A DNA stretch of 64,000 nt. Source: an uncultured Thermoplasmata archaeon. Its GTDB lineage: Archaea > Thermoplasmatota > Thermoplasmata > Lutacidiplasmatales > UBA184. This document shows, piece by piece, positions 10,569 through 59,044 of this stretch (positions within the stretch are counted from its first letter, which is position 1; each line of letters opens with the position of its first letter). The position numbers were made by a program, and so were the translations under genes. The DNA lies in assembly GCA_963804525.1 (NCBI GenBank), contig CAWDQO010000005.1, positions 738,844-802,843 on the forward strand. The letters are read 5' to 3'. The notes beneath the pieces were generated by a model. It ran no database searches, had not been told where the DNA came from, and worked only from the letters and a program-made list of their open reading frames with translations.

Positions 10569-11596
10569 TCAGTTCCGCCCGCGCACCTGTTCGTAGAGCG
10601 ACAGGTGCTGCCGGACCACGGCGCTCCACGCGTACTTCGTCTCGGCGGCCGCCCGGGCCGCAGCGGACATCCGAGTCCGGAGCTCCGCATCCGTGAGGGT
10701 TCGAAGCCGGTCGGTGAGGAACGAGGTAATCTCCGGCGGGGGCGCCCCCGACGGCGCGGTCCAGCCCGTGAGCCCCGGTTCGACGAGGCCGGAGACCGGA
10801 TCGGCGCCGAGGACCGGCAAACCCGCGGCCAGCCCCTGGAGCACCGCACCGGCCAGGATCTCCACCCGGCTCGGATGCAGGAGAACGTCGGCCCGCGCGT
10901 ACTCGCGGCGGAGGTCCGTGTCGGTCAGCTCTCCGAGGAGCTCGACCTGGGGACCGAGCGACCGGAGCGACGCGGCGTACCCGGGTCCGGGGTCGGACCA
11001 ACGAGCCGGAAGGACCATCCTGCGGACCGGGCCGCCTGGGCCGCGAGCTCCCACCGCTTCATCGGGACGACCACGCCGACGCCGAGCGCGACGCGCCCGG
11101 TCCGCGCCGATGGGTCGGGGCGGAATCGGTCGGTGTCGACGCCGATCGGAATGACCGTGAGCCGGTCGCCTGCCGAAGGCACGCTCCCTGCGATTTCCGC
11201 GCGCAGCCGCGCGGTCAGGGCGACCGTCGCCCGGGCCCGGGCGACCGCCCGGCGTTCGAGCCAGTAGCCGAACCGCTGGCGCCCCCCGCTCCGCTCGAAC
11301 CAGTGACGCGAGTGGGACGTGTAGACGAACGGGATCCGGGCGAGGGCGAGCCGGTTGGCGACGACCGGCGTACTCGCGTGGACCACGTCCGGTCGGGATG
11401 CCCGGACGAGGGCGGGGACGGAGAGCGAGAACAGGTACTCGTCGACCGAGCGTCCGTGGCGGACCCGGTTCAGAACGACCGGCTCGTGCCCGGCCGCCCG
11501 GAGCGCGCCCGCGAACTCCGCGATCGTCCGCTCGACTCCGCCGTACCCGACCGGCGGGATCGCCTGGACTCCGGTGCCGACGAGGGCCACCCGCAC
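10569..11596 (-). CDS. Glycosyltransferase family 4 (GT-B), frame-interrupted near 10980
   Basis: The N-terminal half is ORF 10925..11596(-) (MRVALVGTGVQAIPPVGYGGVERTIAEFAGAL...). The C-terminal half is the tail of ORF 10569..11645(-) (YAASLRSLGPQVELLGELTDTDLRREYARADVLLHPSRVEILAGAVLQGLAAGLPVLG). The two join at the G/C runs GTACCCGGGTCCGGGG. Confidence 0.8.
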
Positions 11597-11669
11597 GTCG
11601 AGGGGAAGGCGGGTCGGGGATAAACTTGAACTCGGGAAGCGTCAACTAGGGTCCGGGCCGTCCGCGCCC

Positions 11670-12155
11670 ATGGCCCGCTGGCTCGTGAAGGAGGAGCCGA
11701 CCCACTACGCGTACGCCGACCTCGCCCGCGACGGGAAGGCCGAGTGGAACGGCGTCCACAATGCGCTCGCCCTCCGGCATCTGAAGGCGATGCGTCCGGG
11801 GGACGAGGTCCTCTACTATCACTCCGGGGACGTACGGGCCGTCGTCGGGATCGCGAAGGTGGGCGGAACCCCGCGCCCCGACCCCGACGACGACCGCGGG
11901 TCGTGGACCGTGGTCATCCGTCCGGTACGGCCGCTCCGGAGTCCGGTGACGCTGGCGACGTTGAAGGGCGACCCGACGCTTTCGGAGTTCGACCTGGTCC
12001 GGATCGGGCGGCTTTCGGTGATGCCGGTGGGGGATGGACAGTGGACCCGGATCCTCTCGTACGAACAGTCGCCGGGAGCGGCGCCTCAGAGCAAGGCGGC
12101 CGCGCGGCGTCCGAGCCGGCGTTCCGCCACCGCGCGGAAGCGCGGGTCGACGTAG
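11670..12155 (+). CDS. EVE (PUA-like) domain protein
   Basis: Frame of ORF 11355..12155(+), from ATG 11670. MARWLVKEEPTHYAYADLARDGKAEWNGVHNALALRHLKAMRPGDEVLYYHSGDVRAVVGIAKV...RLSVMPV matches the EVE/DUF55 pattern. Confidence 0.8.
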   Translation: MARWLVKEEPTHYAYADLARDGKAEWNGVHNALALRHLKAMRPGDEVLYYHSGDVRAVVGIAKVGGTPRPDPDDDRGSWTVVIRPVRPLRSPVTLATLKGDPTLSEFDLVRIGRLSVMPVGDGQWTRILSYEQSPGAAPQSKAAARRPSRRSATARKRGST

Positions 12156-13351
12156 AGCGACGCGGACCAGACGCTCGGCGGACGGATCGCGAGCGACCTC
12201 CACACGCTCGGCGGGCGGAACGGGTGGACCACCCGCCCGTCCTCGGACACGCCGACCTCGGCCCAGTCGGCGCCGCGCGGTTCGCGGGCATCCAGCCCCG
12301 CGAGGTCGAACAACACCGCCCCGGACGGGGCCCCGATCCGGTCGGCGAGCGCGTCCTCCCGGGCTCGCCGTTCGACCGGGCGGCGGACGAGCTTGCGGAG
12401 CCCGTCCCGCTCGGCCGGGGTGAGGCGTTTCCAGCCGACGACCCGCTTGTGGAGCCGGCGCTCTCGCAACCCGACTCCCAGCGCGGCCGACCGGCCCCCG
12501 GCGACCTGGAGCGCGACGAGGAGGTCCCCGTCCGTCCCCTCGAGAAGCGGGCGGGCGGTGCCGGGGTATCCCGGGAGTCGCTCGACGGCACCCTGCGCCA
12601 TGACCTCGGCGGCGCGGACGGTCTTGTGGTAGTAGACGGAGGAGTACATCAGCGCCCGACCGACGAGGAACCCCTCGACGGCCTGGCGGCCCTTCTCCGC
12701 GAAAACGAGCCGTGACCTCGTGGCCCGGACCGTGTCGAGGAGCCGGGCGGCGTCGATCGTGCCGTGGGCCACCCCGGTGTAGTACGCATCGCGCTGGAGG
12801 TAGTCGATCCGGTCGGCGTCGATGGCGCCGTGAAGGATCGCGCGGAGGAGGGGAGGCGGCGACCGTCCCGTCGGGTCCACAAGGTCCCCGACCGACCGGG
12901 GGACGATGCCGTGCTTCTCGAGCAGCTCGGCGACCGACGGACCGGTCCCCGCCCCGAGGAGGGAGTCGGGGTCGCCGGAGATGACGGCGCGGCTCCGCGC
13001 CTCGTGGCCCGCCCCCGTCACCTCGCGGAGGGTCGGCTCCAGGGTGTGCGAGAGCGGCGTGTGACCGAGGTCGTGCAAGAGTCCTCCCGCGGCGACGCGG
13101 GCCGACGACTCGGCGTCGAGCCCGAGTCGCTCGGCCATCGTGCGGACGACGGCGTAGACCCCGAGGGAGTGCTCGAGCCGCGTGTGGTTCGCCCCGGGGA
13201 ACACGAGGTGGGCGAGCCCGGTCTGCCGGATCCCCCAGAGCCGCTGGAACGCGCGGTGGCCGACGAGGTCGAGCGAGGCCCCCTCGAGGGCGATGACACC
13301 GTGGACCGGGTCGAAGATCGTCTTGCGGGGTCCCCGCCGCGCGGTCCGCAT
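12086..13351 (-). CDS. HD-domain phosphohydrolase (COG1078/SAMHD1-like)
   Basis: C-terminal 421 codons of ORF 12086..16144(-), from ATG 13351. IFDPVHGVIAL...HTRLEHSLGVY...LLHDLGHTPLSH...DADRIDYLQRDAYYTGV. The rest of that ORF is antisense to the TPR gene. Confidence 0.85.
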   Translation of the reverse strand: MRTARRGPRKTIFDPVHGVIALEGASLDLVGHRAFQRLWGIRQTGLAHLVFPGANHTRLEHSLGVYAVVRTMAERLGLDAESSARVAAGGLLHDLGHTPLSHTLEPTLREVTGAGHEARSRAVISGDPDSLLGAGTGPSVAELLEKHGIVPRSVGDLVDPTGRSPPPLLRAILHGAIDADRIDYLQRDAYYTGVAHGTIDAARLLDTVRATRSRLVFAEKGRQAVEGFLVGRALMYSSVYYHKTVRAAEVMAQGAVERLPGYPGTARPLLEGTDGDLLVALQVAGGRSAALGVGLRERRLHKRVVGWKRLTPAERDGLRKLVRRPVERRAREDALADRIGAPSGAVLFDLAGLDAREPRGADWAEVGVSEDGRVVHPFRPPSVWRSLAIRPPSVWSASLYVDPRFRAVAERRLGRRAAALL

Positions 13352-13456: not shown

Positions 13457-15748
13457 ATGCCGGCCGCAGCCGACCCGGCGCGCCGGGAACCGCCGACCCC
13501 GAACATCGAGGAGGCCCGACGGCTCTTCGCCGCGTCGGAGGAATCCGAGAGCCGCCCGGACCGCGGGCGCCAGTCCGACCGGCTGAAGGCGTTCCTCGCC
13601 TACGTGGAGGGCCACAAGGACCCGCTCATCCCCGACGGACCGGAGGTCGCCAAACGGCTCGACGAGGCGAGCGTGGTATTCTACCGGTCGAACCAGCCCG
13701 AGCTCGCGCTCCGTGCCGTCGATGTCGGGCTCAGCTTCGCCCCGGGCAGCTCCGCCCTCCTCCACCACAAGGCGCTCGTCCTCCTCGCGCAGAACCGGAA
13801 CGTGGACAACGTGGTTCCACTCCTGGATAAGGCGCTCGAGGCGAACCCGCACGACAAGGCGATCTGGGCCACGAAGGGCGACGCCCTGAAGCTGCAGGGC
13901 CGGGGGAACGACGCTGCCGAGGCGTACCTCCGGGCCCAGCAGCTCGACGTCGCCTCGATGCAGTACGTCGAGAAGGCGCTCAAGGCGGCGCCGAACCACG
14001 CGGGGGCCCTGAAGGCAAAGCTCCAGCTCGCCCGCTCCCAGGGAGGGGACCGGCCGGCGCTCGAAGCCGCCGAGGCGCTCCTCGCCGACAATCCCGACGA
14101 CCCGGAGCTGCAGCTGGCCCACGCCGAGCTCCTCGCGGCCGTCGGCGAGCTCGACCGGGCGCTGGCCGCGGTGACTCCGCTCCGGCGCGAGCGCCCCGAC
14201 GATGCCCGGCTGCTCCTCCTCGCCGGACGGCTCGACCTCGCCCTCGGCAAGACGGCGGAGGGGATTGCGGCGTTCCGGTCGGCGGTGGAGGGGTCGTCGT
14301 CCCTCGAGCCGGTCCAGCTCGCGGAGATCGCCGAGCGGCTCGAGGCCGCCGGCGCCGACCTCGCGCTCGCCGTCGAGGTCCGGGGAAAGCTGCGGGACGC
14401 CGAGCCCCAGAACCTCGCGAACCTCCAGGCGCTCCAGGAGCTCGCCCGTCGGACCGACGACCCGGCGCTCGGGATCGCCACGTGCACCCGGCTCCTCGAA
14501 GGGTCCCCGGACAACCTCGATGCGCTCCGCTCCCTCGCCGAGTTTCAGCTCGCCGCCGGCACCCTCGACGCCGCGTTCGCCACGTACGCCCGGATCCAGG
14601 CGGCGCACCCGAACGCGACCGCCGAGCTCCGGAAGGCGGTGGAGGCGGCGCGGGCGAACAGCCGGTCGGACCTGGTGGTCGCGTTCGCCCGGGCGCTCGT
14701 CGAGGAAGAGCCGACCGACCTCTCGGCGAAGGCCGAGCTCGCCAAGGCGCTCGACGGGGCCGGGGACCGGGAGGGGGCGCTCGCCCTCTACGGCGACCTC
14801 CTGACGCACCAGCCCGATTCCCTCGAGTGGGTCCGGGAGCGGACCCGGCTCCTCCGCGACCTCGGTCGCCTCGATGAGCTCCCCGCGGCGTACGATGCCT
14901 TGTTCCGGCTCGACCCCACACGGGCCGACGTCGCGTTGGAGCGGGGCAACCTCATGCTCGACCTTGCCCTCGCCCGCGGCGACGGGTCTCCCGAACGGGC
15001 CGAGTCGGCCCGCGCGGCGCTCGTCTCGTACGAGCGCGCCTCGCTCGACCCGACGCTCGCCGAGCCAAGCCTCCTCGGCCTCGCCCGGGCGTCCCGGCTG
15101 GTCGGGGACCACGACCAGGCGATCCGCGCGTACCGACAGTTCCTCCAGCTCGGGGCGAACTCCCAGCGGGCCGACGTGAAGAAGGAGCTCGGGCACGCGC
15201 TCCGGGAGACCGGGCAGCTCGCCAGCGCCGAGACGTCGTACGAGGAGGCGCTCGCGCTTGGCCTCGAAGACCCCGACCTCCTCTGGGGCGCCGTCGAGGT
15301 GCTCAGCCAGCAGAACGAGGAAGCGAAGGCGCTCCGGTTCCTCGAGGTCCTCCTGGGGCGCGAGCCGAACAATCCGATGTACCTCCGTCGGCGCGGCCAG
15401 CTCCTCCTGAAGTCCGGCCACCGGACCGAAGGGCTCCAGGCGCTGCACGCGGCGGTGGACGCCGCGGGCGCCGACCCGCACGTCCGGTTCGAGGTCGCGG
15501 AGGCGCTCCGCGCCCAGGGGGCGTACGCGGACGCGGTCCTCCAGTACCGACAGGCGCTCCAGCTCGACCCGAAGAGCCGGCCCGGCCGGCTCGCCCTCGC
15601 CGAAACGCTCGTCGTCGCCGGCCGGTACAACGAGGCGATCCCGATGGTCGACGAGCTCCTCACCGACGACCCGAACGACCTCGGCGCCTGGAAGTCCCGC
15701 GCCGACGCGTACCGGGCGCTCGGCCGGACCGCCGACCTGCAGGACCTC
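13457..15748 (+). CDS. TPR-repeat protein, N-terminal segment (frame breaks at ~15745)
   Basis: Frame of ORF 13442..16072(+). Dozens of TPR-like units (for example AIWATKGDALKLQGRGNDAAEAYLRAQQLD and AWKSRADAYRALGRTADL). After about 15750 this frame turns into R/P/G-rich junk. Confidence 0.8.
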
Positions 15749-15749
15749 G

Positions 15750-17939
15750 CTGCAGGCGATCCTCCTCCTCGACCCGAACCACGCCCCGGCGCTCCTCGAG
15801 CAGTTCCGGCTCCACCAGCAGTCGGGAGAGAAGTCGGAGGCGTACGAGGCGCTCCACCAGATGCTCGCGGCCGAGGGGGCCGACGCGTCCGACCCCGCGC
15901 TCTTCCTGCAGGCCGGCGACCTCGCCGCCGAGCTCGGCCGGGGGGAAGAGGCGAACCGCGCGTACGAGCGCGCCGCGGCGCTCGACCCGAGCCTCCTCGG
16001 AGAGATCGCGAACCGCCGGGCCCGTCTGCGGCTCGCCGCAGGACGACCCGACCTCGCCCTCGAGGTCCTTGACCTGACGCTCGCGCAGGGACCCGCGTCC
16101 GAGCGGCCCGTCGGCACCCTCCTCCTCCGCGCCCAGATCCTCATGGCCCTCGAGCGGCAACCCGAGGCCCAATCGGTCTACCAGCAGGTCCTCGAGCACG
16201 AGCCGCGCTCGCCGAGCGCGCTCGCGGGTGTCGGCCGATGTCTCCTCGACCAGGGGAAGCACGCCGATGCGAAGTCGTTCCTGACCCAGGCGATCCCGCA
16301 GGTCCCTCCGAACGCGACCCTCTTCCTCCTCCTCGGCGAAGCCGAGAGCGGCCTCGGCGACCTCGCGGCCGCCGTCGAGGCGGTGCGCAAGGGGACCGAG
16401 TCGCTGCCGAAGTCGGCCGAGCTCTGGGTCCGCCTCGGGGAACTGCAGATCGCGCGCGAGACGTGGTCGGAGGCGGCGGGGGCATACGCCCACGCCATCG
16501 CCCTCGACGCGGCGAATCCCGAGCCGATGCTGCGCGCCGGCTTCGTGGCCGAGAAGCTCGGCCACCCGAACGAGGCGCTCGCGTTGTACGAGCACGCGAC
16601 GACGGTGGCCCCGGCGAACAAGTACGCCTGGTGCAGCCGCGGCGTCGCTCTCCTCGCCACGGGCCGGCCGGACGAGGCCCGGGAGAGCTTCGACCGGTCG
16701 CTCGCCCTCGACTCGGATTTCGTCGCCGCCAAGGAGGGCCGGCAATCGGCGCTCCAGAAGACCCGCGAGGGGCAGGTCGAGCGGTTCGGCCGAGAGGCGC
16801 TCGTCCTCGAGGCGAAGAGCCGGCGGGCCGTCACGCGGAACGACCTCTTTGTCACGCTCCACGTCCCGTTCGACCTCCTCGAGCCCGTGCTGCAGGCGCT
16901 CTCACGGAACGTCAAGGTCGACATCGACCGGCTCGACGAGGCCGAGATGAAGGAGCTCGAGGGGGCGTCGTACCGGCTCGTGACCGCGGCGCTCGAGCAC
17001 CGGCCCGAGGGGCTCGACCGGAGGGGGTTCACCTTGGCCGACGTCGCGGTCCTCTGCCCCCCGACCACCTCGCTCCCCCAGATCCAGAGGCTCTTCGGGT
17101 ACGTCCGGACCGTCCTCGAGCTCGACGTCCGGCCCGAGAACCTGAAGCTGACGCCGGACGTCGAGGAGCTCGCCCGCCGGGCGCTCCTCCTCCCGGAGAA
17201 CCAGCGCACGCTGTTCCAGCTCGTCCGGACCCTGAAGGTCGGGCTGTTCAAGGCCCGGCTCATCAAGGCGGTCGAAACGGCCGGCTCCGCCGTCCACGCC
17301 CCCCTCCCGTCGCTCGACCTCGGGCAGTACGGACCGGAGTTCCGCTCCTCCGAGCCTCTCCCCAGCGACGACGCCGACTTCTTCCCGGCCGACTCCGGGG
17401 GCGCGAGCCCATCCTCCGGCCCCCATCCCGTCGCCGCGGCGGCGCCGCCGGCACCGCGGGGACCTTCTGGCCCCGTGGCCCGCGGGGCCCCGACCGGAGC
17501 CCGCTGCGTGGGGTGCGGCGGCGTCGCGACGGTCGTCCACGGGTGCGGTGCTCCGGTCTGCATGCACTGCATCGCAGAGTTCCGTACTTGCCCGAAGTGC
17601 GGCCAACCGGTCGCCCTTCCCGCCCCGCGGCCGGCGTCGGCATCCCCCGGCCCGGGCCACGCAAGTTCGAGTCGGTCGTCGCACTCCGAGCCCGCGGCGA
17701 AACCTCCCCATCCGGCGAAGGACGACCACGCGAAGCCGAAACCCCCGGCGACTCCGCCGCACGCCCCTCCGAAACCGGCCACGCCGGACCCCACCGCGAA
17801 ATCCGTCGGAAAGCCACCGGCCGCCCGCGCAGCTCCCCCCGACTCACCGCCGGCGGCCCCCGAACCGGCCGCTCCGTCCGCCCCCGCGAAGCCACCCCGG
17901 CCGCCCCGGGAGCGGACCGACGACGAGCCCCGGCTATGA
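15750..17939 (+). CDS. TPR-repeat protein, C-terminal segment with Cys/His finger and Pro-rich tail
   Basis: Frame of ORF 15861..17939(+). My translation upstream of its ATG continues as LQAILLLDPNHAPALLEQFRLHQQSGEKSEAYEALHQ, which is contiguous TPR sequence. It ends with CVGCGGVATVVHGCGAPVCMHCIAEFRTCPKCG and KPPHPAKDDHAKPKPPATPP... Confidence 0.8.
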   Translation: MQAILLLDPNHAPALLEQFRLHQQSGEKSEAYEALHQMLAAEGADASDPALFLQAGDLAAELGRGEEANRAYERAAALDPSLLGEIANRRARLRLAAGRPDLALEVLDLTLAQGPASERPVGTLLLRAQILMALERQPEAQSVYQQVLEHEPRSPSALAGVGRCLLDQGKHADAKSFLTQAIPQVPPNATLFLLLGEAESGLGDLAAAVEAVRKGTESLPKSAELWVRLGELQIARETWSEAAGAYAHAIALDAANPEPMLRAGFVAEKLGHPNEALALYEHATTVAPANKYAWCSRGVALLATGRPDEARESFDRSLALDSDFVAAKEGRQSALQKTREGQVERFGREALVLEAKSRRAVTRNDLFVTLHVPFDLLEPVLQALSRNVKVDIDRLDEAEMKELEGASYRLVTAALEHRPEGLDRRGFTLADVAVLCPPTTSLPQIQRLFGYVRTVLELDVRPENLKLTPDVEELARRALLLPENQRTLFQLVRTLKVGLFKARLIKAVETAGSAVHAPLPSLDLGQYGPEFRSSEPLPSDDADFFPADSGGASPSSGPHPVAAAAPPAPRGPSGPVARGAPTGARCVGCGGVATVVHGCGAPVCMHCIAEFRTCPKCGQPVALPAPRPASASPGPGHASSSRSSHSEPAAKPPHPAKDDHAKPKPPATPPHAPPKPATPDPTAKSVGKPPAARAAPPDSPPAAPEPAAPSAPAKPPRPPRERTDDEPRL

Positions 17940-22423: not shown

Positions 22424-22978
22424 GTGGGTCGGGGTTCCTCGGCGTACGAGCGCGAACTGAAGGAACTCCTCCAGGCCAACCCCGACACGCTCGCCCGGGT
22501 ACTCGAAATCGCTGGCCCCCTCGGATCGCCCCCAGCTCGCCGCGTTCGAGCGAGCCCCGTTCCTCGTCGTCCGGGCCGCGGGGTCGCTCGGGTTCGACCT
22601 CGTCGCGCTCCGCTCGGAGTTCGCGTTCCCGCTCGAGGTGAAGGCGTCGGCGTCGGACACGATCCGGTTCAGCGCCGCCAGTGGGCGGGCCGCCGTCCAG
22701 CTCGAGCAGCACCGCCGGGCGGTCGCCCGGGTCGGGCTCGTGATCCTCTACGCCTACCGGCGGGTCGGCCGGGGCCACGGGGAACCGTGGCGCGTCTACG
22801 CCGGCGGCGTGGGCCCGTCGACGGGCCGGTACCGCGTCCTCAACCGCTGGCTCCCCCCCGTGGAGGCGACGAAGGAGGGAAACGGGGTGTTGCGATGGGG
22901 GGCCGGGATGCCGCTCAGCCGGTTCTTCACCATCGTCGCCAGCCTGACCGAGCCGGCGGCCGGATCCCCCCGCCATGA
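22424..22978 (+). CDS. hjc: Holliday-junction-resolvase-like nuclease (Hjc family), frame-interrupted twice
   Basis: The N-terminus is in the frame of ORF 22424 (GSSAYERELKELLQ). The core is in the frame of ORF 22638 (my upstream translation: DRPQLAAFERAPFLVVRAAGSLGFDLVALRSEFAFPLEVKASASDTIRF...VGLVILYAYRRV). The core frame has no start and no stop before 24437. The breaks fit the C5 run at 22516-22520 and the C6 run at 22966-22971. The frame-A stop forms ATGA with the thiolase start. Confidence 0.65.
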   Translation: MGRGSSAYERELKELLQANPDTLARVLEIAGPLGSPPARRVRASPVPRRPGRGVARVRPRRAPLGVRVPARGEGVGVGHDPVQRRQWAGRRPARAAPPGGRPGRARDPLRLPAGRPGPRGTVARLRRRRGPVDGPVPRPQPLAPPRGGDEGGKRGVAMGGRDAAQPVLHHRRQPDRAGGRIPPP

Positions 22979-24117
22979 AGGTCGCGGTCACCGCGACCGG
23001 CGTCGGGCGGTTCGGCAAGCGGACCGAGACGCTCGTCGAGCTCCTCTGCGAGGCCGGCCGGGAGGCGCTCGACGGCCTCGGCCGGAAGCCGGTCGACCTC
23101 CTGGTCGTCGGCCACATGGCCGGCGGATCGCTCGGGGGGGTCGAGAACACCGTCGCGAAGGTCGCGGACCGGCTCGGGCTCGACGCAGGGTCCGGGGTTC
23201 GCGTGGAGTCGGCGAGCGCGAGCGGGGCCGCCGCCTTCCACACGGCGGTCGCGATGGTCCGGTCCGGCCAGTACGAGCGGGCGCTCGTCGTCGCGGGCGA
23301 GAAGATGACCGACCTGCCGAACGCCGACGCGACGAAGATCCTCGCGGGGTCGCTCGCCCCGTCCGAGGTCGCCCACGGGGCGACGATGCCGGCGCTCGCG
23401 GCGCTCGTCGCGGGCCGGTACCTCGAACGGTACCGCCTCGACGAGGGGGACCTCGACCTGGTGACCGTCGCCGCGCGCGCCGCGGCGGCCCGAAACCCGA
23501 ACGCCCAGTTCTCGAAACCGGTGACGGCCGCGGAGGTCCGCGGAAGCCGACCGGTCGCGCTCCCCCTCCGACTGCTCCACTGCGCCGCCGTCTCGGACGG
23601 GGCGGCCGCCGTCGTCCTCGAGCCGGGGACTGGACCGGCCACGGTGCTCGGCCTCGGTCAGGCGACCGACCACGTCGAGCTCGTGGAACGCCCGGAGCTG
23701 ACGAGCTTCCGGGCGACCCGGGTCGCGGCGCAACGCGCGTACGAGTCGGCTCGCCAGACTCGGAAGGAGGTCGATTTCGCCGAGCTCCACGACGCGTTCG
23801 CCCCGTTCGCGATCATCGACCTCGAGGACATCGGCGCCGTCGGCGCCGGGGAGGGAGCCGCGTGGTTCCGGGGCGGAGCGACGGGGCCCGACGGCCGGTT
23901 TCCCGTGAACCCCTCCGGAGGGATCCTCGGGCGGGGCCACCCTGTGGGAGCCTCCGGCCTCGTCCAACTCGCCGAGGTCGCCCGACAGCTCCGGGGCGAG
24001 GCGGGCGCCATGGCGCTGCCGAAACTCCCCCGCCGAGGACTCGCCCAGTCGATCGGCGGGCTCGGCTCGCACAACTTCGTCACCATCCTCGGCCATTCCG
24101 GGGGCGCGGCACCATGA
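22975..24117 (+). CDS. Thiolase-like acetyl-CoA acetyltransferase (archaeal type)
   Basis: ORF 22975..24117(+). MKVAVTATGVGRFGKR...ESASASGAAAFHTAVAMVRSGQYERALVVAGEKM...NPSGGILGRGHPVGASGL. Confidence 0.85.
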   Translation: MKVAVTATGVGRFGKRTETLVELLCEAGREALDGLGRKPVDLLVVGHMAGGSLGGVENTVAKVADRLGLDAGSGVRVESASASGAAAFHTAVAMVRSGQYERALVVAGEKMTDLPNADATKILAGSLAPSEVAHGATMPALAALVAGRYLERYRLDEGDLDLVTVAARAAAARNPNAQFSKPVTAAEVRGSRPVALPLRLLHCAAVSDGAAAVVLEPGTGPATVLGLGQATDHVELVERPELTSFRATRVAAQRAYESARQTRKEVDFAELHDAFAPFAIIDLEDIGAVGAGEGAAWFRGGATGPDGRFPVNPSGGILGRGHPVGASGLVQLAEVARQLRGEAGAMALPKLPRRGLAQSIGGLGSHNFVTILGHSGGAAP

Positions 24118-24437
24118 GCATGCCCGGCGACCATTCCGATCGTCCGATGCGAACACTGCCACGGGCGGTTCCTCCGCATCCCGGCCCGTGCCCCCGGTGT
24201 GGCTCGACCGACCTTGTGGCCGGGGAGATCCCGGCGAGCGCCGTCGTCCTCGCCGCGACAGAGCTCCTCGCGCCAGCGGCCGGTTGGACAAGCCCGCACC
24301 GCCTCGTGATCGCCGAGGGAGCGGAGAACGTCCGGATTCTCGCCACCGTCGCCGGTCCGCTCCCCGCGGTCGGCTCGCTCGTCACGGTCCGTCAATCCGG
24401 CGACCGGTACGAAGTCACTGCGACCGGTGCCACGTAG
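24114..24437 (+). CDS. DUF35-type OB-fold/Zn-ribbon protein (thiolase partner)
   Basis: Tail of ORF 22638..24437(+), from ATG 24114 (ATGA overlap with the thiolase stop). CPRCGSTDLVAGEIPASAVVLAATEL...VRILATVAGPLPAVGSLVTV. The position after the thiolase gene is the conserved archaeal arrangement. Confidence 0.65.
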   Translation: MSMPGDHSDRPMRTLPRAVPPHPGPCPRCGSTDLVAGEIPASAVVLAATELLAPAAGWTSPHRLVIAEGAENVRILATVAGPLPAVGSLVTVRQSGDRYEVTATGAT

Positions 24438-24683: not shown

Positions 24684-25660
24684 GTGGGTGGGATGCGGGT
24701 GGCGAAGGCTGGGGTCGTCGGCGCCGGGACGATGGGCGCGGCGATCGCCGAGGTGCTCGCCTTCAACGGAATCCCGGTCGTCCTGACCGATGTCGACGGG
24801 GCCGCGGTCGACCGGGGCCTCGGCCGGATTCGCTTTCTCATCGAGGAGCTCGTCGCCTTCCACGCGACGCGCGCCGACCGCGAGGTCGCCCGGATCGCCG
24901 AGTTGGGCATCGAGCTCTCCGGACCGCAGGTGGCCACGGTGCGGGAGCGCCTTGCGCCCAAGGTCACCCCCGCGCGCGGCGTGGAGATTGCGGCCCGCGT
25001 GCGCGGCACGACCGATTGGGCCGAGTTCTCGGACGTCGACTTCGTCGTGGAGGCGGTCTTCGAGCAGGAGGGCGTGAAGCGGCCCGTCCTCGAGAAGCTC
25101 GACCGGGCCCTGCCGGACCATGCGGTGCTCGGCTCCAACACCTCCTCCCTGTCGATCACGCGGCTCGCGAAAGGGCTCGCCCACGTCCGCCAGACGCTCG
25201 TCACGCACTTCTTCAATCCGCCCGGAACGCTGCCGCTCGTCGAGGTTGCCGGTGGCGTCGACACCCGCGAGGACGTCGTCCTGGAGACGATCGACTTCCT
25301 CCAGGGGCTCCGGAACCACCGATCTCCCCTCGTTCCGATCCGCGTGAAGGAGTCGCCGGGGTTCGTCGTGAACCGGATCCTCCTCCCGGTGCTGAACGAG
25401 GCGTGCTTCGCCCTGGAGGAGGGGCTCGCCTCGTCCCGGGACATCGACCTCGCGATGAAGGCCGGCGCGGGGCTGCCGATGGGGCCGTTCGAGCTCGCGG
25501 ACCTCATCGGCCTCGACGTGACCCTCGAGGTCGCCGAGACCCTCGTCCGGGGAACCGGAGACCCGAAGTACCGCCCAGCGCCCGCGCTCCGGAGGCTCGT
25601 CGACGCCGGCCACTCGGCCGGAAGACCGGGCGCGGCTTCTACGACTACTCGACCGGCTGA
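24684..25660 (+). CDS. 3-hydroxyacyl-CoA dehydrogenase, frame-interrupted near 25613
   Basis: ORF 24684..25967(+) carries VVGAGTMGAAIAEVLAFNGIPVVLTD...NTSSLSIT...GFVVNRIL...PMGPFELADLIGLD...LRRLVDAGH. The canonical ending LGRKTGRGFYDYSTG* is in the frame of ORF 25016..25660. One C appears to be missing in CAC(C)TCGG. Confidence 0.85.
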
Positions 25661-27825: not shown

Positions 27826-27829
27826 CCGG

Positions 27830-42752: not shown

Positions 42753-42826
42753 CGTCCTTCGTGGAGCCTGCGCGGTGGCAGTGCTCCTCCCTTTCGGTCA
42801 CCAATCTCGCGGAGTCCGGTTCAACC

Positions 42827-43902: not shown

Positions 43903-44001
43903 CGAGTCGCCTCTCAGCCACTCGGTCGGCAATGGCCGTCCTATCACGCCAGGGACACGGCACCCGCCCGAATCCAATCTCGGAGCGAGTGGCTCGCGCT
44001 A

Positions 44002-44029
44002 CTCGCGGTCCCCGGTCATCGGCCGCGCG
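44002..44029 (+). repeat. Intergenic repeat copy 2: CTCGCG-N9-CATCGGCCGCGCG
   Basis: 13-mer at 44017-44029, directly abutting the epimerase stop codon (44030-44032). CTCGCG at 44002-44007. Confidence 0.7.
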
Positions 44030-44908: not shown

Positions 44909-44920
44909 TAGCCGGCTAAT
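44898..44920. promoter_or_regulatory. Overlapping perfect palindromes, candidate MarR operator
   Basis: CGGCTAAT-C-ATTAGCCG (44898-44914) and ATTAGCC-GGCTAAT (44907-44920). They lie in the 62-nt divergent region between the epimerase and marR-like genes and cover the epimerase ATG (44908-44906). Confidence 0.5.
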
Positions 44921-44970
44921 GCACGGAAGGGATTTAACGGCTCGCGCCGCAGCAGGGTAGACGGATACTC

Positions 44971-45408
44971 GTGGCGACCCCCGATTTCTGGGACGATTTC
45001 GTCCGCGTGGCGAAGCTATCCCGGACCGCGGTCGACGAGATCATGAAGCAATACGGGGGCCGTGGCGGGCAGAACCACATCCTCTGGGCTCTGTACGAGA
45101 AAGATGGGCTTACGCCCATCGAGGTCGCCCGGAAGCTCGGGATCTCCGCGCCGACTGTTGTGAAGATGTCGTCGCACATGGTCGCCTCGGGGCTCATCAC
45201 AAGGCGCAGAGACTCCGTCGACCGACGCCGCGTTCACCTTTATCTGACCGACCGAGGTCGCGCGGTCAAGAGGCCGATCGAGGAAGCGACCCGACAGTTC
45301 CGGCGCGCGACCAGCGCCGGATTGACGGCCGAGGAACGCACGGTCATGTCGAGCGCCCTCGCCAAGATCGTGCGAAACTTGGAACGCTCAGCCCGAAGCG
45401 CCGAATAG
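44971..45408 (+). CDS. MarR-family transcriptional regulator
   Basis: ORF 44971..45408(+). ILWALYEKDGLTPIEVARKLGISAPTVVKMSSHMVASGLITRRRDSVDRRRVHLYLTDRG. Confidence 0.85.
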   Translation: MATPDFWDDFVRVAKLSRTAVDEIMKQYGGRGGQNHILWALYEKDGLTPIEVARKLGISAPTVVKMSSHMVASGLITRRRDSVDRRRVHLYLTDRGRAVKRPIEEATRQFRRATSAGLTAEERTVMSSALAKIVRNLERSARSAE

Positions 45409-45432
45409 GATCCGTCGGCCGCGCCGCCCCCC

Positions 45433-45460
45433 CTCGCGATTCCCCAACATCGGCCGCGCG
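45433..45460 (+). repeat. Intergenic repeat copy 3: CTCGCG-N9-CATCGGCCGCGCG
   Basis: 13-mer at 45448-45460 and CTCGCG at 45433-45438, 25-52 nt downstream of the marR-like stop. Confidence 0.7.
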
Positions 45461-45831
45461 GTACCTTCAAGACACTTTATTGGACGCGAGCCCCGCCCGA
45501 ATGACTGCCGCGTGTGCGACCGACGCGGCTCCCCCGGCGTCGGAGGGTCCGAGACCCCCGAGCCGCGGGCCGGACGCGCCGGGGTCGACTCGGGGGTGCG
45601 CCGGGGACGGTTCACCGGCCCGCGACGAACCGCATGCGGTCCTGGGGAGGCGGCTCACAAGGATGGCGACGAGCGCTCGATGCAATGGCGGTTCAGCGTT
45701 TCGGACCGAACCAGCCGCCCACTGAACGACGCGGGGGGGGGCTGACGAGCGCGCCGCACCCCGGGGGGGCATTGCGTCGTCCGGCCAGACGAGGGGGCGT
45801 TCGTTTCGGCCCCAGCGGGTGGAGGTGCTTG

Positions 45832-45838
45832 AATATAT
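45832..45838 (+). promoter_or_regulatory. TATA-like box for tRNA-Thr
   Basis: AATATAT, centred about 32 nt upstream of the tRNA 5' end at 45867. Confidence 0.5.
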
Positions 45839-45866
45839 GGCAAATCGGGCATTTTCTCTGACGTGT

Positions 45867-45939
45867 GCCGCCATAGCTCAGTCGGGAGAGCGGCTGATTT
45901 GTAATCAGCAGGTCGGGAGTTCAATCCTCCCTGGCGGCT
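45867..45939 (+). tRNA. tRNA-Thr(UGU), no intron
   Basis: Hand fold: GCCGCCA-TA-GCTC-AGTCGGGA-GAGC-G-GCTGA-TTTGTAA-TCAGC-AGGTC-GGGAG-TTCAATC-CTCCC-TGGCGGC-T. Anticodon TGT. 73 nt. Confidence 0.9.
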
Positions 45940-46097
45940 CCGTACTCCGGCCAGGACGACTGGTCCCTCTCGGGACCGGGACCGAGGTCGGGGCGATCTG
46001 CGACGGCGAGGACGGCCCCGGTCCTGCTCCAGCCGCGGTCATTCCGCGCAATAGTTATGAGTGCCGGCCCGTCGAGCCGATTCGTGACGACCGGGCC

Positions 46098-48962: not shown

Positions 48963-49659
48963 CTACCGACGACGAATGAGGGAACTCCAGACCCGGAAGA
49001 CCCACGAGGGTGTGGGACGCGGCCGGCTCGTGACCAATAGCGGTCCCAGGGCCGTCCCGGAAACCTCGGCGATGGTGTTGATTGCGTACACCGCCGCGCT
49101 CGTGCCGTACGGAGGATAGCTCCAATGCAGGACGACCGACCAGATCACTAGAGCGCCGCCGAAGACCACCGCAACCGCCGCGGTCGGAGGGTCCCAGCCG
49201 AACCTCTCCCACGATACGAGGAGGAGGCTGGCCACGAGGAGTTCGGCGAGGAACCACGTGCCGAAGCCGGCCCACCCCGCCGTTGGGAAGGTGGGTCCGG
49301 GGATGAGCAGGCCAGGGCGCCCGGTCGAGAACGAGTATGCGATCGCGTAGAGAGCCTCGAACGCCCCGAGGCCGGCAACTGCGAGGATCCCCGATTCGAG
49401 AATCGTCGCCTTGCGCCACCTCGCGACGACCCCCGCGACGAGAAGGCTGGCGACCGTGAACAGGTAGATTCCATGCCAGGCGACCGGAACACCGGACGCT
49501 ATCTCATCGGACCGAAACACCGGCCCCATTCGCGCAGCGATCAGTCGCGGGGCGAGGAGGGCAAGGCCAACGACGGCGAGAACGAGGCAGGTTGCGATCC
49601 AGCGATCCGACCGCCGGGTCGGTCCACTCTTCGCCCGCGAACCGGCGTCCGCTGTCCAT
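48963..49659 (-). CDS. Hypothetical multi-pass membrane protein; first TM helix and ATG lie in another frame
   Basis: ORF 48963..49529(-) is hydrophobic throughout. My in-frame upstream translation gives a further helix, RWIATCLVLAVVGLALLAPRLIAAR, with no start codon. The ATG at 49659 (MDSGRRFAGEEWTDPAVGS) is one frame off, with the break near 49600. Confidence 0.6.
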
Positions 49660-49852
49660 CGTGTCGTAGAGAATCCTAAGGGTCGGTCGGCTATGAACCT
49701 CCCAGCCGCAGAGGTCGGCGCCGGACCGGCACCTCTTCGGAGTCGGGCCCGCGAGATTGCAGCCGCTCGCCGAACGGGAGCCCTGGGGCGCAGTGGGGCT
49801 GCTCGAGATCGCCCGCGACGGACCCATTAACCCCTCCGGTCATCCGTCCGCG

Positions 49853-50703
49853 ATGGCCGGGGCGCTCCACGTCGGCTGCTCGTCCTGGACGAGCGAGGCA
49901 TGGAACGGGCGACTCTATCCGCCGGGGCTGCCGCCGGGCCAGCGGCTTCCGGTACTACGCGAGGTTCTTCGACTGCGTCGAGGTCGACGCGACGTACCTA
50001 CGCCATCCCCGCCCGGTCGATGGTGCGCGGCTGGGCGCACCGGACGCCGGAGTCGTTCCGGTTCGCCCTGAAGCTCCCGCGGGAACTGCTCGAGCGCGAC
50101 CACCCCCTCGACGAGGGGAAGGCGGACACGTTCGTCGCGGCGGCGCGAGAGCTTGGCCCAAAGCTCGCCGGGGTCGTGGCCCAATTCCCTCCCTCGTTCC
50201 GCCCGCCGAAGGAGGGGGAGGGGGGAGGGGCCGCTCAATTGGTCCACCTCCTCGAAGCGTTGGCCCCGCGCCTGCCGATGGCCGTCGAGCTCCGGGACAA
50301 GGGTTGGTTTTCCGGCGGCAGGGCGGAATGGCTCTACGACCGCTTGCGCGCGCACGGTACGGCGCTCGCCTGGTCGTATCTGACGTACCTCGACGTCCCG
50401 CCCGAGGTCACTTCGGACCGGATCTACCTTCGATTCATCGGAGACCATACGACGATTCCCGAGCACGAACTCGGGGAGACCCGGGTCGACCGGACGGCTG
50501 AGACCCGGCGCTGGGCGGCCGCGGTGCGCGAACGGCTCGACGAGGTCGAGAGCGCCCTCGTCTTCTTCAACAATCACTTCGCCGGGTACGCCCCGGCGTC
50601 CGCGAACTCGTTCCTCGCGATGCTCGGTCGGCCGACCATCCCGGGGACCTCGGGACCCGACACGCCCCCAGGTGGTAGCGGGACGGGAGTCGGGCTCGGC
50701 TAA
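49853..50703 (+). CDS. DUF72-family protein, frame-interrupted twice
   Basis: Three frames carry consecutive DUF72 sequence: ALHVGCSSWTSEAWNGRLYPPGLPPGQRL (ORF 49757), RYYARFFDCVEVDATY (my translation), and YAIPARSMVRGWAHRTPESFRFALKLP...VFFNNHFAGYAPASA (ORF 49900..50703). The breaks are at about 49948 (TTCCGG) and 49994-50001 (GTACCTAC). Confidence 0.8.
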
Positions 50704-52331: not shown

Positions 52332-53277
52332 GTGGCCATTTCGACACGGCAGCACTTCCGAATCGAACGGGTTGCGACTGGCATTTGGGCCGCGATCGCC
52401 CGCGACGGTGGGTACGGTCTCTGCAACGCCGGGATCGTCGACCTCGGCGGTACGACCGTCGTATACGACTCGATGCTGACGCCGATGGCCGGGGAGGAAC
52501 TCCGCCGGAGCGCGCGTCGGTTGACCGGACGGGATCCGGCGGTGGTCATCAATAGCCACTGGCACGGGGACCACATCCGCGGAAACGGCGCGTTCGCCCC
52601 CGCGGCAATCGTCTCGACGGCAAGGACGCGGGAGCTGATTCGGACCGCCGGGGTCCAGCAGTGGACCTCCGACCGCCGCAGCATGCCCGCGGCCCTCGCG
52701 TCCCTCGACGCTCCGGAATCGGACGTTCCCCGAACAGAGCGGGCCCTATACCGGGGATGGTTCGAGGGAACGCTACGGGTTCCAATTCCGTTTCGACCCG
52801 CTCCCCCGAACGTGACCTTTGAGCGCGAACTGTCCCTCGCAGGGACGCGCCGGGAGCTTCGCGTCCTGACCTACGGGGGAGGACACTCCCCCAGCGACGT
52901 GTTTGCGTTTGCCCCGGAGGAACGGGTCGCTTTCCTCGGGGACCTCGTGTCGGTCGGGTTGCACCCGTCCGTGGGCGACGGAGCGCCGTCCCCCTGGCGT
53001 CGCATCCTGCGTCGGATCCGTCGGCTCGGGATTGGCCGGGCGATTCCCGGGCATGGGCCCGTAGGGGGGGCTCCACAAATCCAGCAGATCGAGCATTATC
53101 TGGCCGACCTAGGACCGGTTGGCCGGGCGAGCATTCCAGCGGGGCGACTCCCGGAAGGTCCTCCGGGATGTTCCAATCCCTCCCCTTTACCGCGAGTGGC
53201 GCTTCTCAGCGTTCTTCGCTGGGAACCTGATCCGGGCGTACAGCCTCGCGCAGGCCCAACGCGTCCGAGCCGGGTGA
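52332..53277 (+). CDS. MBL-fold metallo-hydrolase, frame-interrupted near 53110
   Basis: ORF 52332..53579(+) carries VINSHWHGDHIRGN...GGGHSPSD...PGHGP. The natural-looking ending DRLAGRAFQRGDSRKVLRDVPIPPLYREWRFSAFFAGNLIRAYSLAQAQRVRAG* (stop at 53275-53277) is one frame off, starting at CCTAGG (53108-53113). Confidence 0.75.
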
Positions 53278-53732: not shown

Positions 53733-54881
53733 ATGAAGGTCGTTGCCGTGCTCTACCCGGGAGGCGCTGCCGCGAAGGAAACGCCGGAACTCCTGAACTG
53801 TACCGAGCATGCGCTCGGCCTTCGGCCCGTGCTGGAGGCGAAGGGCCACACCCTTGTCGCGACGTCGGAGACGGGCGCGGGGCTCGACCGCGAGCTCCCC
53901 GACGCGGAGGTGCTGATCGCCACGCCGTTCTGGCCGGCGTACATCACGAAGGAGCGGATCGCGGCCGCCCCGCGATTGAAGCTGCTCCTGACGGCCGGGG
54001 TCGGGTCCGACCATTTCGACCTCGCCGCCGCGGCCGCGCGGGGGATTACCGTCGCGGAGATCACCGGGAGCAACGTCGTCTCGGTCGCCGAACACGTGGT
54101 GATGCAGGTCCTGGCCCTCGTCCGGAACTACATCCCCTCGTACCAGCAGGTCATCGCCGGGGGGTGGGACATCGCGGCCCTCGCGGCGCACGCCCACGAC
54201 CTCGAGGACAAGACGGTCGGCATCGTCGGAATGGGCCGGATCGGTCAGCGGGTGGCCGCCCGCCTGAAGCCGTTCGACGTCCGGATGTTCTACTACGACA
54301 ACCGGAGGCTGACGACGACGGACGAGCAGGTGCTGGGCGCCCGGTACATGCCGCTCGACAACCTCGTCGCCGCGTGCGATGTCATCAGCATCAACGCCCC
54401 CCTCACCCCCGGAACCGACCGACTCTTCGATGCAGCCCGGCTCGGGCGCATGCGAAAGGGGTCGTACCTCGTCAACACGGCCCGGGGTCGCATCGTCGAC
54501 ACCGACGCCCTCGTCGAGGCGTTGCGGTCCGGCCATCTGGCGGGGTACGCGGGGGACGTTTGGTACCCCCAGCCCGCCCCGAAGGACCACCCGTGGCGGT
54601 CGATGCCGAACCACGCGATGACACCGCACCTCTCGGGCACGACGCTCGAGGCGCAGAAGCGGATCGCCGAGGGGATCCAGGACTGCATGGCCCGGTATCT
54701 CGCGGGCCGCCCCCTCGAACGCGATTATCTCATCGTCGAGGGGGGCAAGGTCGTCAGCCCCTCCTACAGCTACGCGTACGAACCGGCTGACCCTCGCAAG
54801 GACGTCGCCCCTCCGGGTCCGATGCGCGCAGATTCCGCGCGGTCCGGGGGGTTCAAATCACGGCCCGGCGTTCGGGTCTCG
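53733..54881 (+). CDS. NAD-dependent formate dehydrogenase; ORF has no stop and reads through to 55064
   Basis: ORF 53733..55064(+). TPFWPAYITKERIAAAPRLKLLLTAGVGSDHFDL; ITVAEITGSNVVSVAEHVVM; GIVGMGRIGQRV; GDVWYPQPAPKDHPWRSMPNHAMTPHLSGTT. The family-typical length (about 380-400 aa) is reached before codon 384, where an RHH-like module begins. Confidence 0.85.
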
Positions 54882-56246: not shown

Positions 56247-56848
56247 CTACTTGAACCCGGCGGAAGATTCGTCCCGGCCTCCGCCGAGGGGGTCCCGGCA
56301 AGTGCGGCCGCGAGCTCGCGCGACCGGTCCCCCGATCCGTTCGTCGCCGTGGCGACCACGACCCGCCGCCCGCCCCGGTCGCCAAGGACCTCCCAGTTCC
56401 GGGATCGGGCGACCGCGCTCCAGACCTCGAACGACGGACCAGGTTCCGCCGGCGACGACCCCGGCGTCGGATCCGGCTTTGGGACTCCCGAGCCGAATCG
56501 GATCACGGCGAGATCGCCCACGAAATCCACCCGGGGGAGCAGTACGACGAACCCCACCGCGCCGATCGCCCCCAGCGCGATGCCGAAGGTGCCCTCCCAT
56601 CCGGGGAGCCCTCGGGCCGAGAGGTCGAGGCCGCCGAGAACGGCTGCGCACACTTCCACGGCGCAGGCGAGCAGTCCCACTCGAATCCGGCGCAGCGCGG
56701 TCGCGTCCATTCGGAGTTCGGACTCCGCCACGAGGCAGACCCGACCCTCGGCATCGAACTCCGTCGCCGAGAGGCTCCATCCCGCCCGTGTCAGCGCCGC
56801 CGTTCGTTCGGGAGCGGTTCGTGGCGACGGGCCGGGTTCTCGGCCCAA
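56247..56848 (-). CDS. Hypothetical membrane protein; 3' end probably in another frame
   Basis: N-terminal part of ORF 54770..56848(-): ...RRIRVGLLACAVEVCAAVLGGLDL...TFGIALGAIGAVGFVVLLP...FEVWSAVARSRNWEVLGDRGGRRVVVATA. This frame has no stop until 54770. A TAG at 56247 in the neighbouring frame, reached across a C5 run near 56290, would end the gene 24 nt before the next gene. Confidence 0.35.
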
Positions 56849-57078
56849 CGCAACCGGAGCGCCGTCCGGAGGTTCTGGGACGACGTCAAACCTACGTGGA
56901 GAGAGGATCGGACCGGATTCGATGGGCCTCAGCCGGTGACCCCGGAGGACCTCGCCCGGAACGGGCGTACCCCCGGGGAAGTCGGGCCCGGAGTCTCGAT
57001 GCGGCTCGCCGAGCTAGAACTCGCGACGGCCCGAGCCGGGTCGGAAGGGACGCCCACGCGGCTCCGTCGGGCGCGGGC

Positions 57079-57531: not shown

Positions 57532-57631
57532 CGGTACCGGAGGATATTCCGGACCGTACTTGAAGCGCCCCGTCGCGGTCGGGGGGCTCGGAAGCCGAGC
57601 TGGGCCGCGCGAATACCCCGCGAGGGAACGC

Positions 57632-58204
57632 TCACCTCCTGGACCGTCGGGGAGGCTTCGACCGGTGCCGGACCTCGGAGTACGCCGCGGTTTTCTGTTC
57701 GGTCGAGCGGTGGGCGAGGTGGAGCTGCGCTTCCTTCGCAAGCCACTCAAAGTTGGAGTAGGCGCTGAAGTCGTGCCCGTATTCCTTCGCGAGGTACTTC
57801 GCGTGGGCCTCGAACACCTGCCAATCGCGGACCACAAGGTACTGGAGGGAGTCGAGGACGATCTCCAGGTCGACGATGTTCGACCGGGCCATCTGGCCCA
57901 GCAACTCGTAGACGTACGCGAAGTTCCGGATCTCGAGGTCCTCCGGGGACTCGAAGGCGTCTCGCCAGCCGGTCTCGCGGAACTTCTGCAGCGTCACGAA
58001 CATCCGGGCTCGCCGCCGCGGGAACGCCTCGTCGGTGATCCGTTCCATCACGTTCAGCGAGAACGTCGCCTGGGACTGGTTCAACGTCGCCTGGAGGAGA
58101 CGGGCGTTTTGGCGCAATTGGAGGAGCACGAAGATTGCGCTCAGCACGACCGCGGCCGAGCTCGAGGCGCTCAGGATCGGAATGACCGTCGTGGTGTCGA
58201 CCAT
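57632..58204 (-). CDS. Hypothetical protein with a single N-terminal TM helix and a helical domain
   Basis: ORF 57632..58270(-), probable start at M23 (58204). MVDTTTVIPILSASSSAAVVLSAIFVLLQLRQN.... The locally lower GC and balanced composition support coding. Confidence 0.6.
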   Translation of the reverse strand: MVDTTTVIPILSASSSAAVVLSAIFVLLQLRQNARLLQATLNQSQATFSLNVMERITDEAFPRRRARMFVTLQKFRETGWRDAFESPEDLEIRNFAYVYELLGQMARSNIVDLEIVLDSLQYLVVRDWQVFEAHAKYLAKEYGHDFSAYSNFEWLAKEAQLHLAHRSTEQKTAAYSEVRHRSKPPRRSRR

Positions 58205-58308
58205 CGGGCGCCGCTCCCGAGCCACCGCCCCGCTATCAACCCCGTGGCCGCTGAAGTCCGGTCCTCCCAAGACCGAGCCGACAAATACAGCGGACCCGTC
58301 CGAGGGAT

Positions 58309-59044
58309 GTGGCCGGGTTCCTTCCCGCGTCCGAAGGCGACCTCCTCCGGTCCCGTCCGGGCTCGAATCGCCCGGGCGTGTTCCCGCCGGGGGCCCTGCT
58401 CGCCGAGGAGAAGATCGTCTACGAAACCCGTCCCCGCCTCATGGGCTTGCATCCGGCCCTGGTGCTCGCCCCCCTCCCCTTCGCCTTCCTGTTCGGGGCT
58501 GCAATTGTCGTCGGGGTCGCGCAGGGCGTCGGAGGCACCGGGTTCGCGATCGCTGGCGTGATCGTGGTACTCCTGATCCTCTCCCCCGCTCTCTACGGGG
58601 TGTACGACTGGCGACGCACCGCCTATGTGATCACCGACCAGCGGGTCGCCGTTCGGAGCGGGGACAGCTACGAGACGGCCACGTTCGAGATGGTGCGGAA
58701 CGTGAGTCTCGCCCCCGACTCGAGCAAAGTCGTGTTCGAGCTCCTCCCCCCGCCCGACGCGCCGCCGCGCGCGGGGTTTCGGCTCTCGCGGAAGAGCCGG
58801 CTGGTTTGGGTGGGGCTCGAAGGGGCCCCGGCCGTCGCTTCGTTCGGGCAGAGCGCCATCGAGTACCTACCGACTCCAAAATCAGCAGCGGCTCCTTCGG
58901 CAGAGTCTCGTCGTGTCGTCGATGTCCAACACGGTCGTGTGTGCGTACTGCGGCGCGTTGGTCGACCTCTCCTCGGTGAGCGGGTCGGCCCCGCGGTGCC
59001 CGAAATGCTCGGCGTTCCTCACGGTCGCGCCGAGCGGACTCTAG
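58309..59044 (+). CDS. bPH (YdbS/YdbT-like) membrane protein with C-terminal Zn-ribbon; frame-interrupted at 58863-58870
   Basis: ORF 58309..59124(+). EEKIVYETRPRLMG, two TM helices, then YDWRRTAYVITDQRVAVRSG. One frame off after GTACCTAC, my translation gives YRLQNQQRLLRQSLVVSSMSNTVVCAYCGALVDLSSVSGSAPRCPKCSAFLTVAPSGL* (stop at 59042-59044). Confidence 0.65.

Follow-up and report, generated by a model that had tools for sequence, protein, structure and literature searches.

Assemblies built from Oxford Nanopore reads alone carry one-base indels whose deletion rate grows with the length of guanine or cytosine (G/C) runs; such errors occur genome-wide, are indifferent to coding, are removed by short-read evidence and come with highly contiguous assemblies of low completeness. 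Genome decay, as in Mycobacterium leprae and recent obligate symbionts, leaves lesions that appear in accurate reads, together with stops, deletions and relaxed conservation. Programmed +1/-1 frameshifting, as in prfB, dnaX and the IS3-family transposases, takes place at sites that the DNA itself encodes and that are conserved among relatives. DNA modification is reported to give rise to systematic errors in nanopore reads and in the consensus derived from them (Liu et al. 2024, Genome Res, PMC11610603). Here, we analyse the reading-frame breaks in a 64,000-nt stretch (the window; C5:738844-802843) of the genome bin of an uncultured Thermoplasmata archaeon, a bin of 2.19 Mb in six contigs with 70% G+C. 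A preliminary description, drawn from the sequence alone, had listed genes that change frame, mostly at G/C homopolymers, and had favoured indel errors of an unpolished long-read assembly over mass pseudogenisation.

The window was compared with Illumina-derived Logan contigs from up to 12 public runs belonging to at least five studies, the runs that contain window DNA being soil metagenomes. Runs X1-X4, all from one study, were aligned over the whole window, X5-X8 over 27000-40500 only and X9-X12 over 36000-39000 only; indels were seen in X1-X4 and, from four other studies, in X5, X6, X8 and X9. The libraries are Illumina tagmentation libraries, with Nextera adapter remnants visible as loose contig ends, and the contigs are 150-3500 nt long at a depth of 2-10x.

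Short indels set the window apart from these contigs at 28 sites, 27 of them involving one base and one involving two (36985). The window lacks sequence at 14 sites: 3388, 10982, 22965, 24173, 25613-25615 (a complex change), 26773, 27167, 32028, 36985 (the two bases GC), 42652, 54779, 56260, 56962 and 59992. It carries an extra base at the other 14: 3399, 15745, 22497, 24123, 27394, 31791, 32860, 39970, 49951, 49997, 53112, 58866, 61637 and 61664. At 27 of the 28 sites the window's allele was shown by no short-read contig among nine runs from at least five studies, the exception being the G7 run at 61664-61670. Runs that cover the same site agree with one another, and most seeming exceptions are contig ends (10982 in X1, 32860 in X4, 39970 in X2 and 53112 in X1). 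Applying the read-supported edits merged the split open reading frames (ORFs) and made Pfam matches continuous, at full length, across the edited positions. Repair was assessed with a codon log-likelihood model trained on the genome's long ORFs; a GC3 frame plot and a comparison of GC3-filtered ORFs were dropped as too noisy at 70% G+C, where antisense frames look coding. The frame breaks are hence almost certainly errors in the consensus of a metagenome assembly from long reads (most likely Oxford Nanopore) and not part of the organism's DNA, as the preliminary description had preferred to read them; high-accuracy reads confirming every indel, which it had named as the outcome that would speak against this, are clearly not what the short-read contigs show.

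A close comparison is possible with run X3, whose long contigs differ from the window by 16 substitutions over 26.7 kb (99.94% identical), making X3 practically the same strain, yet show ten indels against it. The resulting indel-to-substitution ratio of 0.6 is far above that of natural divergence and thus points to an artefact. In addition, no indexed public run contained more than 1 of 8 sampled words of the 107-nt stretch that carries the window's doubly altered version of a DUF72 gene (see below).

The indels fall into two classes of equal number, one of deletions in short G/C runs and one of insertions at GTAC(T), and are not simply miscalls of long homopolymers. Among the missing-base errors, 12 of 14 do lie in G/C runs (1-6 bases), which bears out part of the claim that the breaks sit mostly at such homopolymers; runs of at least five bases, however, account for only four of the 28 sites, against seven for GTAC. 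The missing-base rate per G/C run in the window climbs from 0.01% at length 1 through 0.03% at length 2 and 0.15% at length 3 to 0.3%, 0.9% and 1.8% at lengths 4, 5 and 6, an approximately threefold gain with each added base. Half of the extra-base sites (7/14) are a doubled outer base of GTAC, giving GGTAC or GTACC, and the true sequence in all seven is GTACT. In a set of 12 extra-base sites that did not include 3399, six abut GTAC as compared to 1.4% of G/C runs (P = 7e-9), and within the window ~8% of GTACT/AGTAC sites (7 of ~87) are affected versus none of ~175 other GTAC sites. Some indels come in tight pairs, namely 3388/3399 and 24123/24173, which compensate each other, and 49951/49997, two extra bases 46 nt apart; these close pairs look like local consensus slips. 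In the mechanism that we propose, the consensus would lose a base mainly in G/C runs, at a rate climbing with run length (class A), or gain one, in half of the cases by doubling the outer base of GTAC where the truth is GTACT (class B). Both strike coding and non-coding DNA alike; the genes would be intact in the cell though split in the file.

The same signature extends beyond the window. A 20-kb stretch of contig C6 contains 8-9 such indels, and a coding-score scan of the whole genome returned 381 frame-switch events, a count to be read for relative enrichment and not as an absolute number, as the frame-switch signature picks up ~35-40% of the known coding sites and the scan's sensitivity is estimated at about one third. 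Across the genome, GGTAC or GTACC is found within 15 nt of 39% of extra-base events as compared to a background of 5.3% (P = 5e-49), the base following GGTAC is T in 44% of events versus 17% of the background, and a G/C run of at least five bases is found near 33% of missing-base events versus 9%. The error rate is ~0.44 indels per kb, or one per ~2.3 kb, corresponding to ~950 in the genome. Marker completeness is 80.8% despite just six contigs, a combination typical of a long-read bin ridden with frameshifts. Three relatives of the same genus (G003, G010 and G013) have 2-8 contigs and a completeness of 74-83%, which suggests that they, too, were assembled from long reads and suffer from the same frameshifts.

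The window's indels are an artefact of a known kind. They share with those of Nanopore-only assemblies their one-base size (bar the single 2-nt deletion), the growth of the deletion rate with G/C run length, the genome-wide and coding-indifferent distribution, the removal by short-read evidence and the combination of high contiguity with low completeness. They are unlike the classic long-homopolymer deletions of that platform in that most affected runs are of 1-4 bases and half of the errors are insertions, and the platform here is itself deduced: contigs of 0.8-0.9 Mb binned from a soil metagenome can scarcely stem from anything other than long reads and, taken with the error spectrum, point to Nanopore. 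A search for a public Nanopore run containing the stretch listed none.

Several observations weigh against attributing everything to the assembly. The support consists of Logan contigs of low depth in place of raw reads, and a second contig of the same run lacks the indel at 15745 (X3), at 22497 and 61637 (X1) and at 49951 (X4). The runs differ from the window by scattered substitutions and thus display strain variation, and the bin's own strain could in principle differ from all of them. The homopolymer at 61664-61670 is polymorphic among runs and its G7/G6 difference is probably a genuine length polymorphism of the population. The missing start codon of a PIN-domain gene (see below) is real DNA, so that not every oddity of the window is an artefact. 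Finally, short-read coverage has gaps, e.g. at ~7400-8900 and in parts of 36000-38900, where more errors may lie. Long ORFs at 6508-9045 (coding score 54.6 for 845 amino acids, aa) and at 37170-38900 (~72 for 724 aa) score weakly; additional undetected frame errors are likely in these two regions, where coverage is patchy.

Strain variation, the polymorphic homopolymer and the PIN gene's missing start are what could be cited for real mutations, i.e. mass pseudogenisation or decay in the binned strain, with the short-read runs representing sister strains whose genes are intact. Genome decay would likewise leave many recognisable genes frameshifted among intact neighbours. Here, however, the lesions vanish in short-read data at nearly every site and even in the almost identical X3, and the corrected proteins match their family profiles over the full length. 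Indels strike core enzymes whose domains are complete, such as urocanate hydratase and 3-hydroxyacyl-CoA dehydrogenase, as often as intergenic DNA; indeed, of the 26 sites from 9000 to 64000, seven are found in intergenic DNA or 5' regions, so that the sites ignore function and give no sign of selection. Pairs of indels 11-50 nt apart and the strict GTACT context also fit a consensus artefact and not decay, leaving real mutations a very improbable explanation. Programmed recoding, be it ribosomal frameshifting or transcriptional slippage with GTACC/GGTAC or G/C runs as slippery sequences, might be suspected from the short motif that recurs at half of the +1-type breaks and looks superficially like a signal. 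While a frame change at a recurrent short sequence is indeed what programmed frameshifting shows, recoding needs the frameshift to be present in the DNA, and the short-read contigs of the same population encode these genes in one frame. Motif-linked extra bases moreover occur outside coding DNA (at 39970, and at 3399, where it is unclear whether the DNA is coding), and just ~8% of GTACT sites are affected, all of which makes recoding scarcely credible.

While consensus error accounts for the breaks as a whole, the GTAC class might have a cause of its own. GTAC could be chemically modified in this organism, for example to N4-methylcytosine (m4C) by an orphan methyltransferase, which would distort the nanopore signal. 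In favour of this, the motif specificity is strong, and DNA modification is reported to be able to induce nanopore read errors (PMC11610603). The window's errors resemble such errors in their concentration, far beyond chance, at one short palindromic motif, GTAC, as expected of a methylation motif, and differ in being insertions of the outer base and not substitutions. Orphan GTAC m4C methyltransferases persist in several archaeal lineages (PMC10609329). The genome contains at least five full-length N6_N4_Mtase (PF01555) genes. One of them, G000:C6:418453-419097, has matches of the same form (~645 nt, profile positions 1-220) in many genomes of the genus, and its product is, judged by sequence, a candidate persistent orphan methylase. 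Against it, only ~8% of GTACT sites carry the error. The alternative is a context bias of the basecaller or polisher that is independent of modification, which would explain the class at least as well. We regard it as possible, though rather unlikely, that the extra bases at GTAC(T) are the footprint of a GTAC modification, with m4C set by an enzyme of the N6_N4_Mtase family as the candidate.

At the level of individual genes, 13 of the 15 listed in the preliminary description carry indels in the short-read comparison, and 12 indels lie within 5 nt of the positions it had proposed (10982, 15745, 22965, 25613-25615, 27167, 27394, 32860, 36985, 49951, 49997, 53112 and 58866). It was mistaken about a PIN-domain gene and a membrane protein gene, and it had the right gene and the wrong position in two cases, in which the break had been assigned to the nearest homopolymer. 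Its list did not contain 26773, 32028, 39970, 42652, 56260, 56962, 59992, 61637 and 61664, and the pair 3388/3399 lay beyond its range.

In the GT4 glycosyltransferase gene (10569-11596, minus strand), the split at 10982-10985 reflects a G3 run that should be G4, as an X4 contig has an additional G behind 10982; after the edit the ORFs merge into one of 342 aa, with Glycos_transf_1 at residues 165-315 running across the edit at residue 206. The gene for a tetratricopeptide repeat (TPR) protein (13457-17939, plus strand) is split at 15745-15746 by an extra C that X2 and X3 contigs omit, and its two ORFs become one of 1493 aa whose coding score rises from 294+233 to 645. The Hjc-like gene (22424-22978, plus strand) is broken twice. 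Its first break, at 22497-22499, is an extra G in GGGTAC where the truth is GGTACT (X1, X2 and X3 omit the base), and does not reside in the C5 run at 22516-22520 to which it had been ascribed; the second, near the C-terminus, is a C6 run at 22966-22971 that is one C short, with X1, X2 and X3 carrying the additional C behind 22965. In the corrected protein, Pfam Hjc covers residues 8-98 and spans the edit at residue 25, so that the window, by this match, encodes an archaeal Hjc-type resolvase.

A DUF35-like zinc-ribbon gene (24114-24437, plus strand), previously named as only a possible case, proved to contain a compensating pair (24123-24175) in which the C gained at 24123 is offset by one lost at 24173, both edits being present in X1, X2 and X4. 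The pair garbles 17 codons; correction brings back the first zinc-ribbon CxxC (CEHCHGRF...CPRCGS), and a weak zf-ChsH2 match (E 0.012) is obtained with the corrected version only. Upstream of this gene lies a thiolase-like gene with Thiolase_C_1/Thiolase_N matches. The 3-hydroxyacyl-CoA dehydrogenase (HADH) gene (24693-25660, plus strand) has its C-terminus broken at 25613-25617 by a complex change, the window reading TCGG and the reads TTGGG; four runs yield the same corrected sequence via two equivalent alignments, and the 3HCDH C-terminal domain is then complete (profile positions 1-97 of 97), its match at residues 223-319 including the edited residue 308. The dienelactone hydrolase (DLH) gene (26741-27825, minus strand) contains three errors: it is one G short both at 26773 (G4) and at 27167 (G5), and it has a C too many at 27394, where GTACC stands for AGTACT, all on the basis of X1-X5. 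Correction raises its coding score from 63 to 149 and gives a DLH match that covers profile positions 3-215 of 217 and includes the edited residues 144 and 220.

The glycoprotein gene (30510-31887, minus strand) contains an extra G at 31791-31793, which an X5 contig omits; this site, and not the G5 run at 31804-31808 that had been blamed, splits the signal peptide from the mature part, and correction places both in one frame. Urocanate hydratase (hutU, 32038-33730, minus strand) is interrupted by an extra G at 32860-32861 that is omitted by X1, X2, X3, X5 and X6, runs from three studies. The corrected protein has its three urocanase domains complete, and the match to the Rossmann-like domain (1-209 of 209) includes the edited residue, 291. 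The gene of a PKD-domain protein (36195-37170, plus strand) is the one site with a two-base change: the window is without GC at 36985-36986, and an X9 contig (36940-37160) has GC behind 36985. The error parts the PKD domains from the C-terminal membrane anchor, which the corrected protein, ending in ...VTSGSGRPGPGALGGPTWLAVGATFAGTALAVGVLVRLLQRRRWRKE..., regains.

Further along, the DUF72 gene (49757-50703, plus strand) carries the two extra bases at 49951 (GGTACT) and 49997 (GTACCT), both of them doubled outer bases of GTAC and both omitted by X1-X4, and in the corrected protein the DUF72 match, over profile positions 1-216 of 217, takes in both edited residues (65 and 80). The gene for a metallo-beta-lactamase-fold (MBL) protein (52332-53277, plus strand) has its C-terminal part broken by an extra G at 53112-53113 that X2, X3 and X4 omit; only after the edit does a 314-aa ORF with a proper C-terminus result, with Lactamase_B at residues 28-241. 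An NAD-dependent, formate-dehydrogenase-like 2-hydroxyacid dehydrogenase (53733-54790, plus strand), whose stop had been flagged as possibly affected, lacks a G just after GTAC at 54779-54780, which four runs supply. This indel lies 11 nt before the true stop, and the ORF in the window overruns to 55064, adding a false tail of 91 aa to a protein that, once corrected, has 352 aa and complete 2-Hacid_dh and 2-Hacid_dh_C domains. In the gene for a small membrane protein (56247-56710, minus strand), a missing C at 56260-56261, present behind 56260 in X3 and X4, alters the C-terminus and the stop; the corrected frame ends in ...GTNLPAGFK and a stop codon, just ahead of the next gene. The last gene on the list, called a "bPH protein" (58309-59044, plus strand), has an extra C in GTACC at 58866-58867, where the truth is AGTACT and X2 and X3 omit the base. 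Its corrected product has 244 aa and a score that rises from 37 to 76; the bPH_2 match is sub-threshold (E 0.026), and the family name thus remains an unverified assignment.

Among the remaining sites, between hutU and the glycoprotein gene, a G4 run at 32028-32032 is the result of a missing G that all four runs X1-X4 restore, with no coding ORF affected. The extra G at 39970-39972 (GGGTAC, true GGTACT; omitted by X1, X3, X4, X5 and X8) precedes the start of a glyoxalase-like gene (39555-39932, minus strand) by ~38 nt. At 42652-42655, probably within the 5' region of the gene at 41701-42363 (minus strand), CCCGGG is one base short. Here, the runs differ on the restored base (42650-42658), reading CCCCGGG in X1, X2 and X4 versus CCCGGGG in X3, which suggests that a genuine C/G variant coincides with the base lost in the assembly. 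A G missing from a G3 run beside GTACC at 56962-56965, in a region of low coding score, is present in all four runs, as is the G that is lacking from the G5 run at 59992-59997, in intergenic DNA right after the TAG stop of an ABC ATPase gene (59190-59993, plus strand). Two further intergenic sites are an extra C at 61637 and the polymorphic G7 run at 61664-61670, which is G6 in X1 and X4 and G7 in X2 and X3 (the X3 contig being gapless from 61647). In the compensating pair at 3388-3399, the window omits an A behind 3388 and inserts a C at 3399, reading GTACC where the truth is GTACT, as seen in X1, X3 and X4, and gene models nearby need the same frameshift caveat. As a separate observation, G+C falls to 0.66 at 38000-46000, with low coding scores, as compared to 0.69-0.74 in the rest of the window, and this region may be foreign or mobile DNA.

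Two of the genes for which a frameshift had been proposed are free of indels. The PIN_9-family gene (27830-28286, minus strand) matches PIN_9 over positions 1-116 of 116, starting from VVLDANAL, and contigs of X3, X4 and X1 cover its G6 run at 28278-28283 with no gap, so that the Illumina data confirm the DNA as it stands. A codon walk from the upstream stop encountered no ATG, GTG or TTG before 28165, the first such codon in frame; the domain begins at 28261. Lengthening the run from G6 to G7, which would create a GTGA-overlapped start reading MTPPDGETLVVLD, was considered and rejected, since the Illumina contigs confirm G6 and relatives do not use such a start. In two relatives (G023 and G006) the start is a GTG that immediately precedes LVLxD, the first catalytic strand; two more (G012 and G019) are likewise without a canonical start there. 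The gene is a small real oddity, with either a non-canonical start or a decayed start codon.

The region of the membrane protein gene (49504-49827, minus strand), for which a break at about 49600 had been suggested, is spanned by a 3.5-kb X3 contig (48515-52052) whose only two gaps are those in DUF72, and by an X2 contig (49254-49824) with none. The first start codon (49529) of this gene (48963-49529, minus strand) is preceded, in frame, by a hydrophobic, transmembrane-like stretch (WIATCLVLAVVGLALLAP), and the true start is unclear.

The value of these results is practical and not biological: they provide a caveat for the genome and a list of sites from which corrected frames can be derived in the window. 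About a quarter of the window's genes look split, truncated or extended, in line with the preliminary description's warning about gene calls from this contig, and about a quarter of the gene calls of the bin are wrong, with genes that appear split or truncated or that seem to have an extension or a fusion which is false. Before they are interpreted, apparent pseudogenes, missing starts, odd fusions and small "novel" ORFs of this genome must be checked against short reads or relatives. The GTAC(T) insertion signature offers an easy diagnostic, as a change of frame located at GGTAC or GTACC is, in a bin of this kind, almost certainly an error. Should GTAC modification prove to be its cause, the methylation motifs of uncultured lineages could be inferred, without raw signal, from maps of the errors in unpolished long-read bins.

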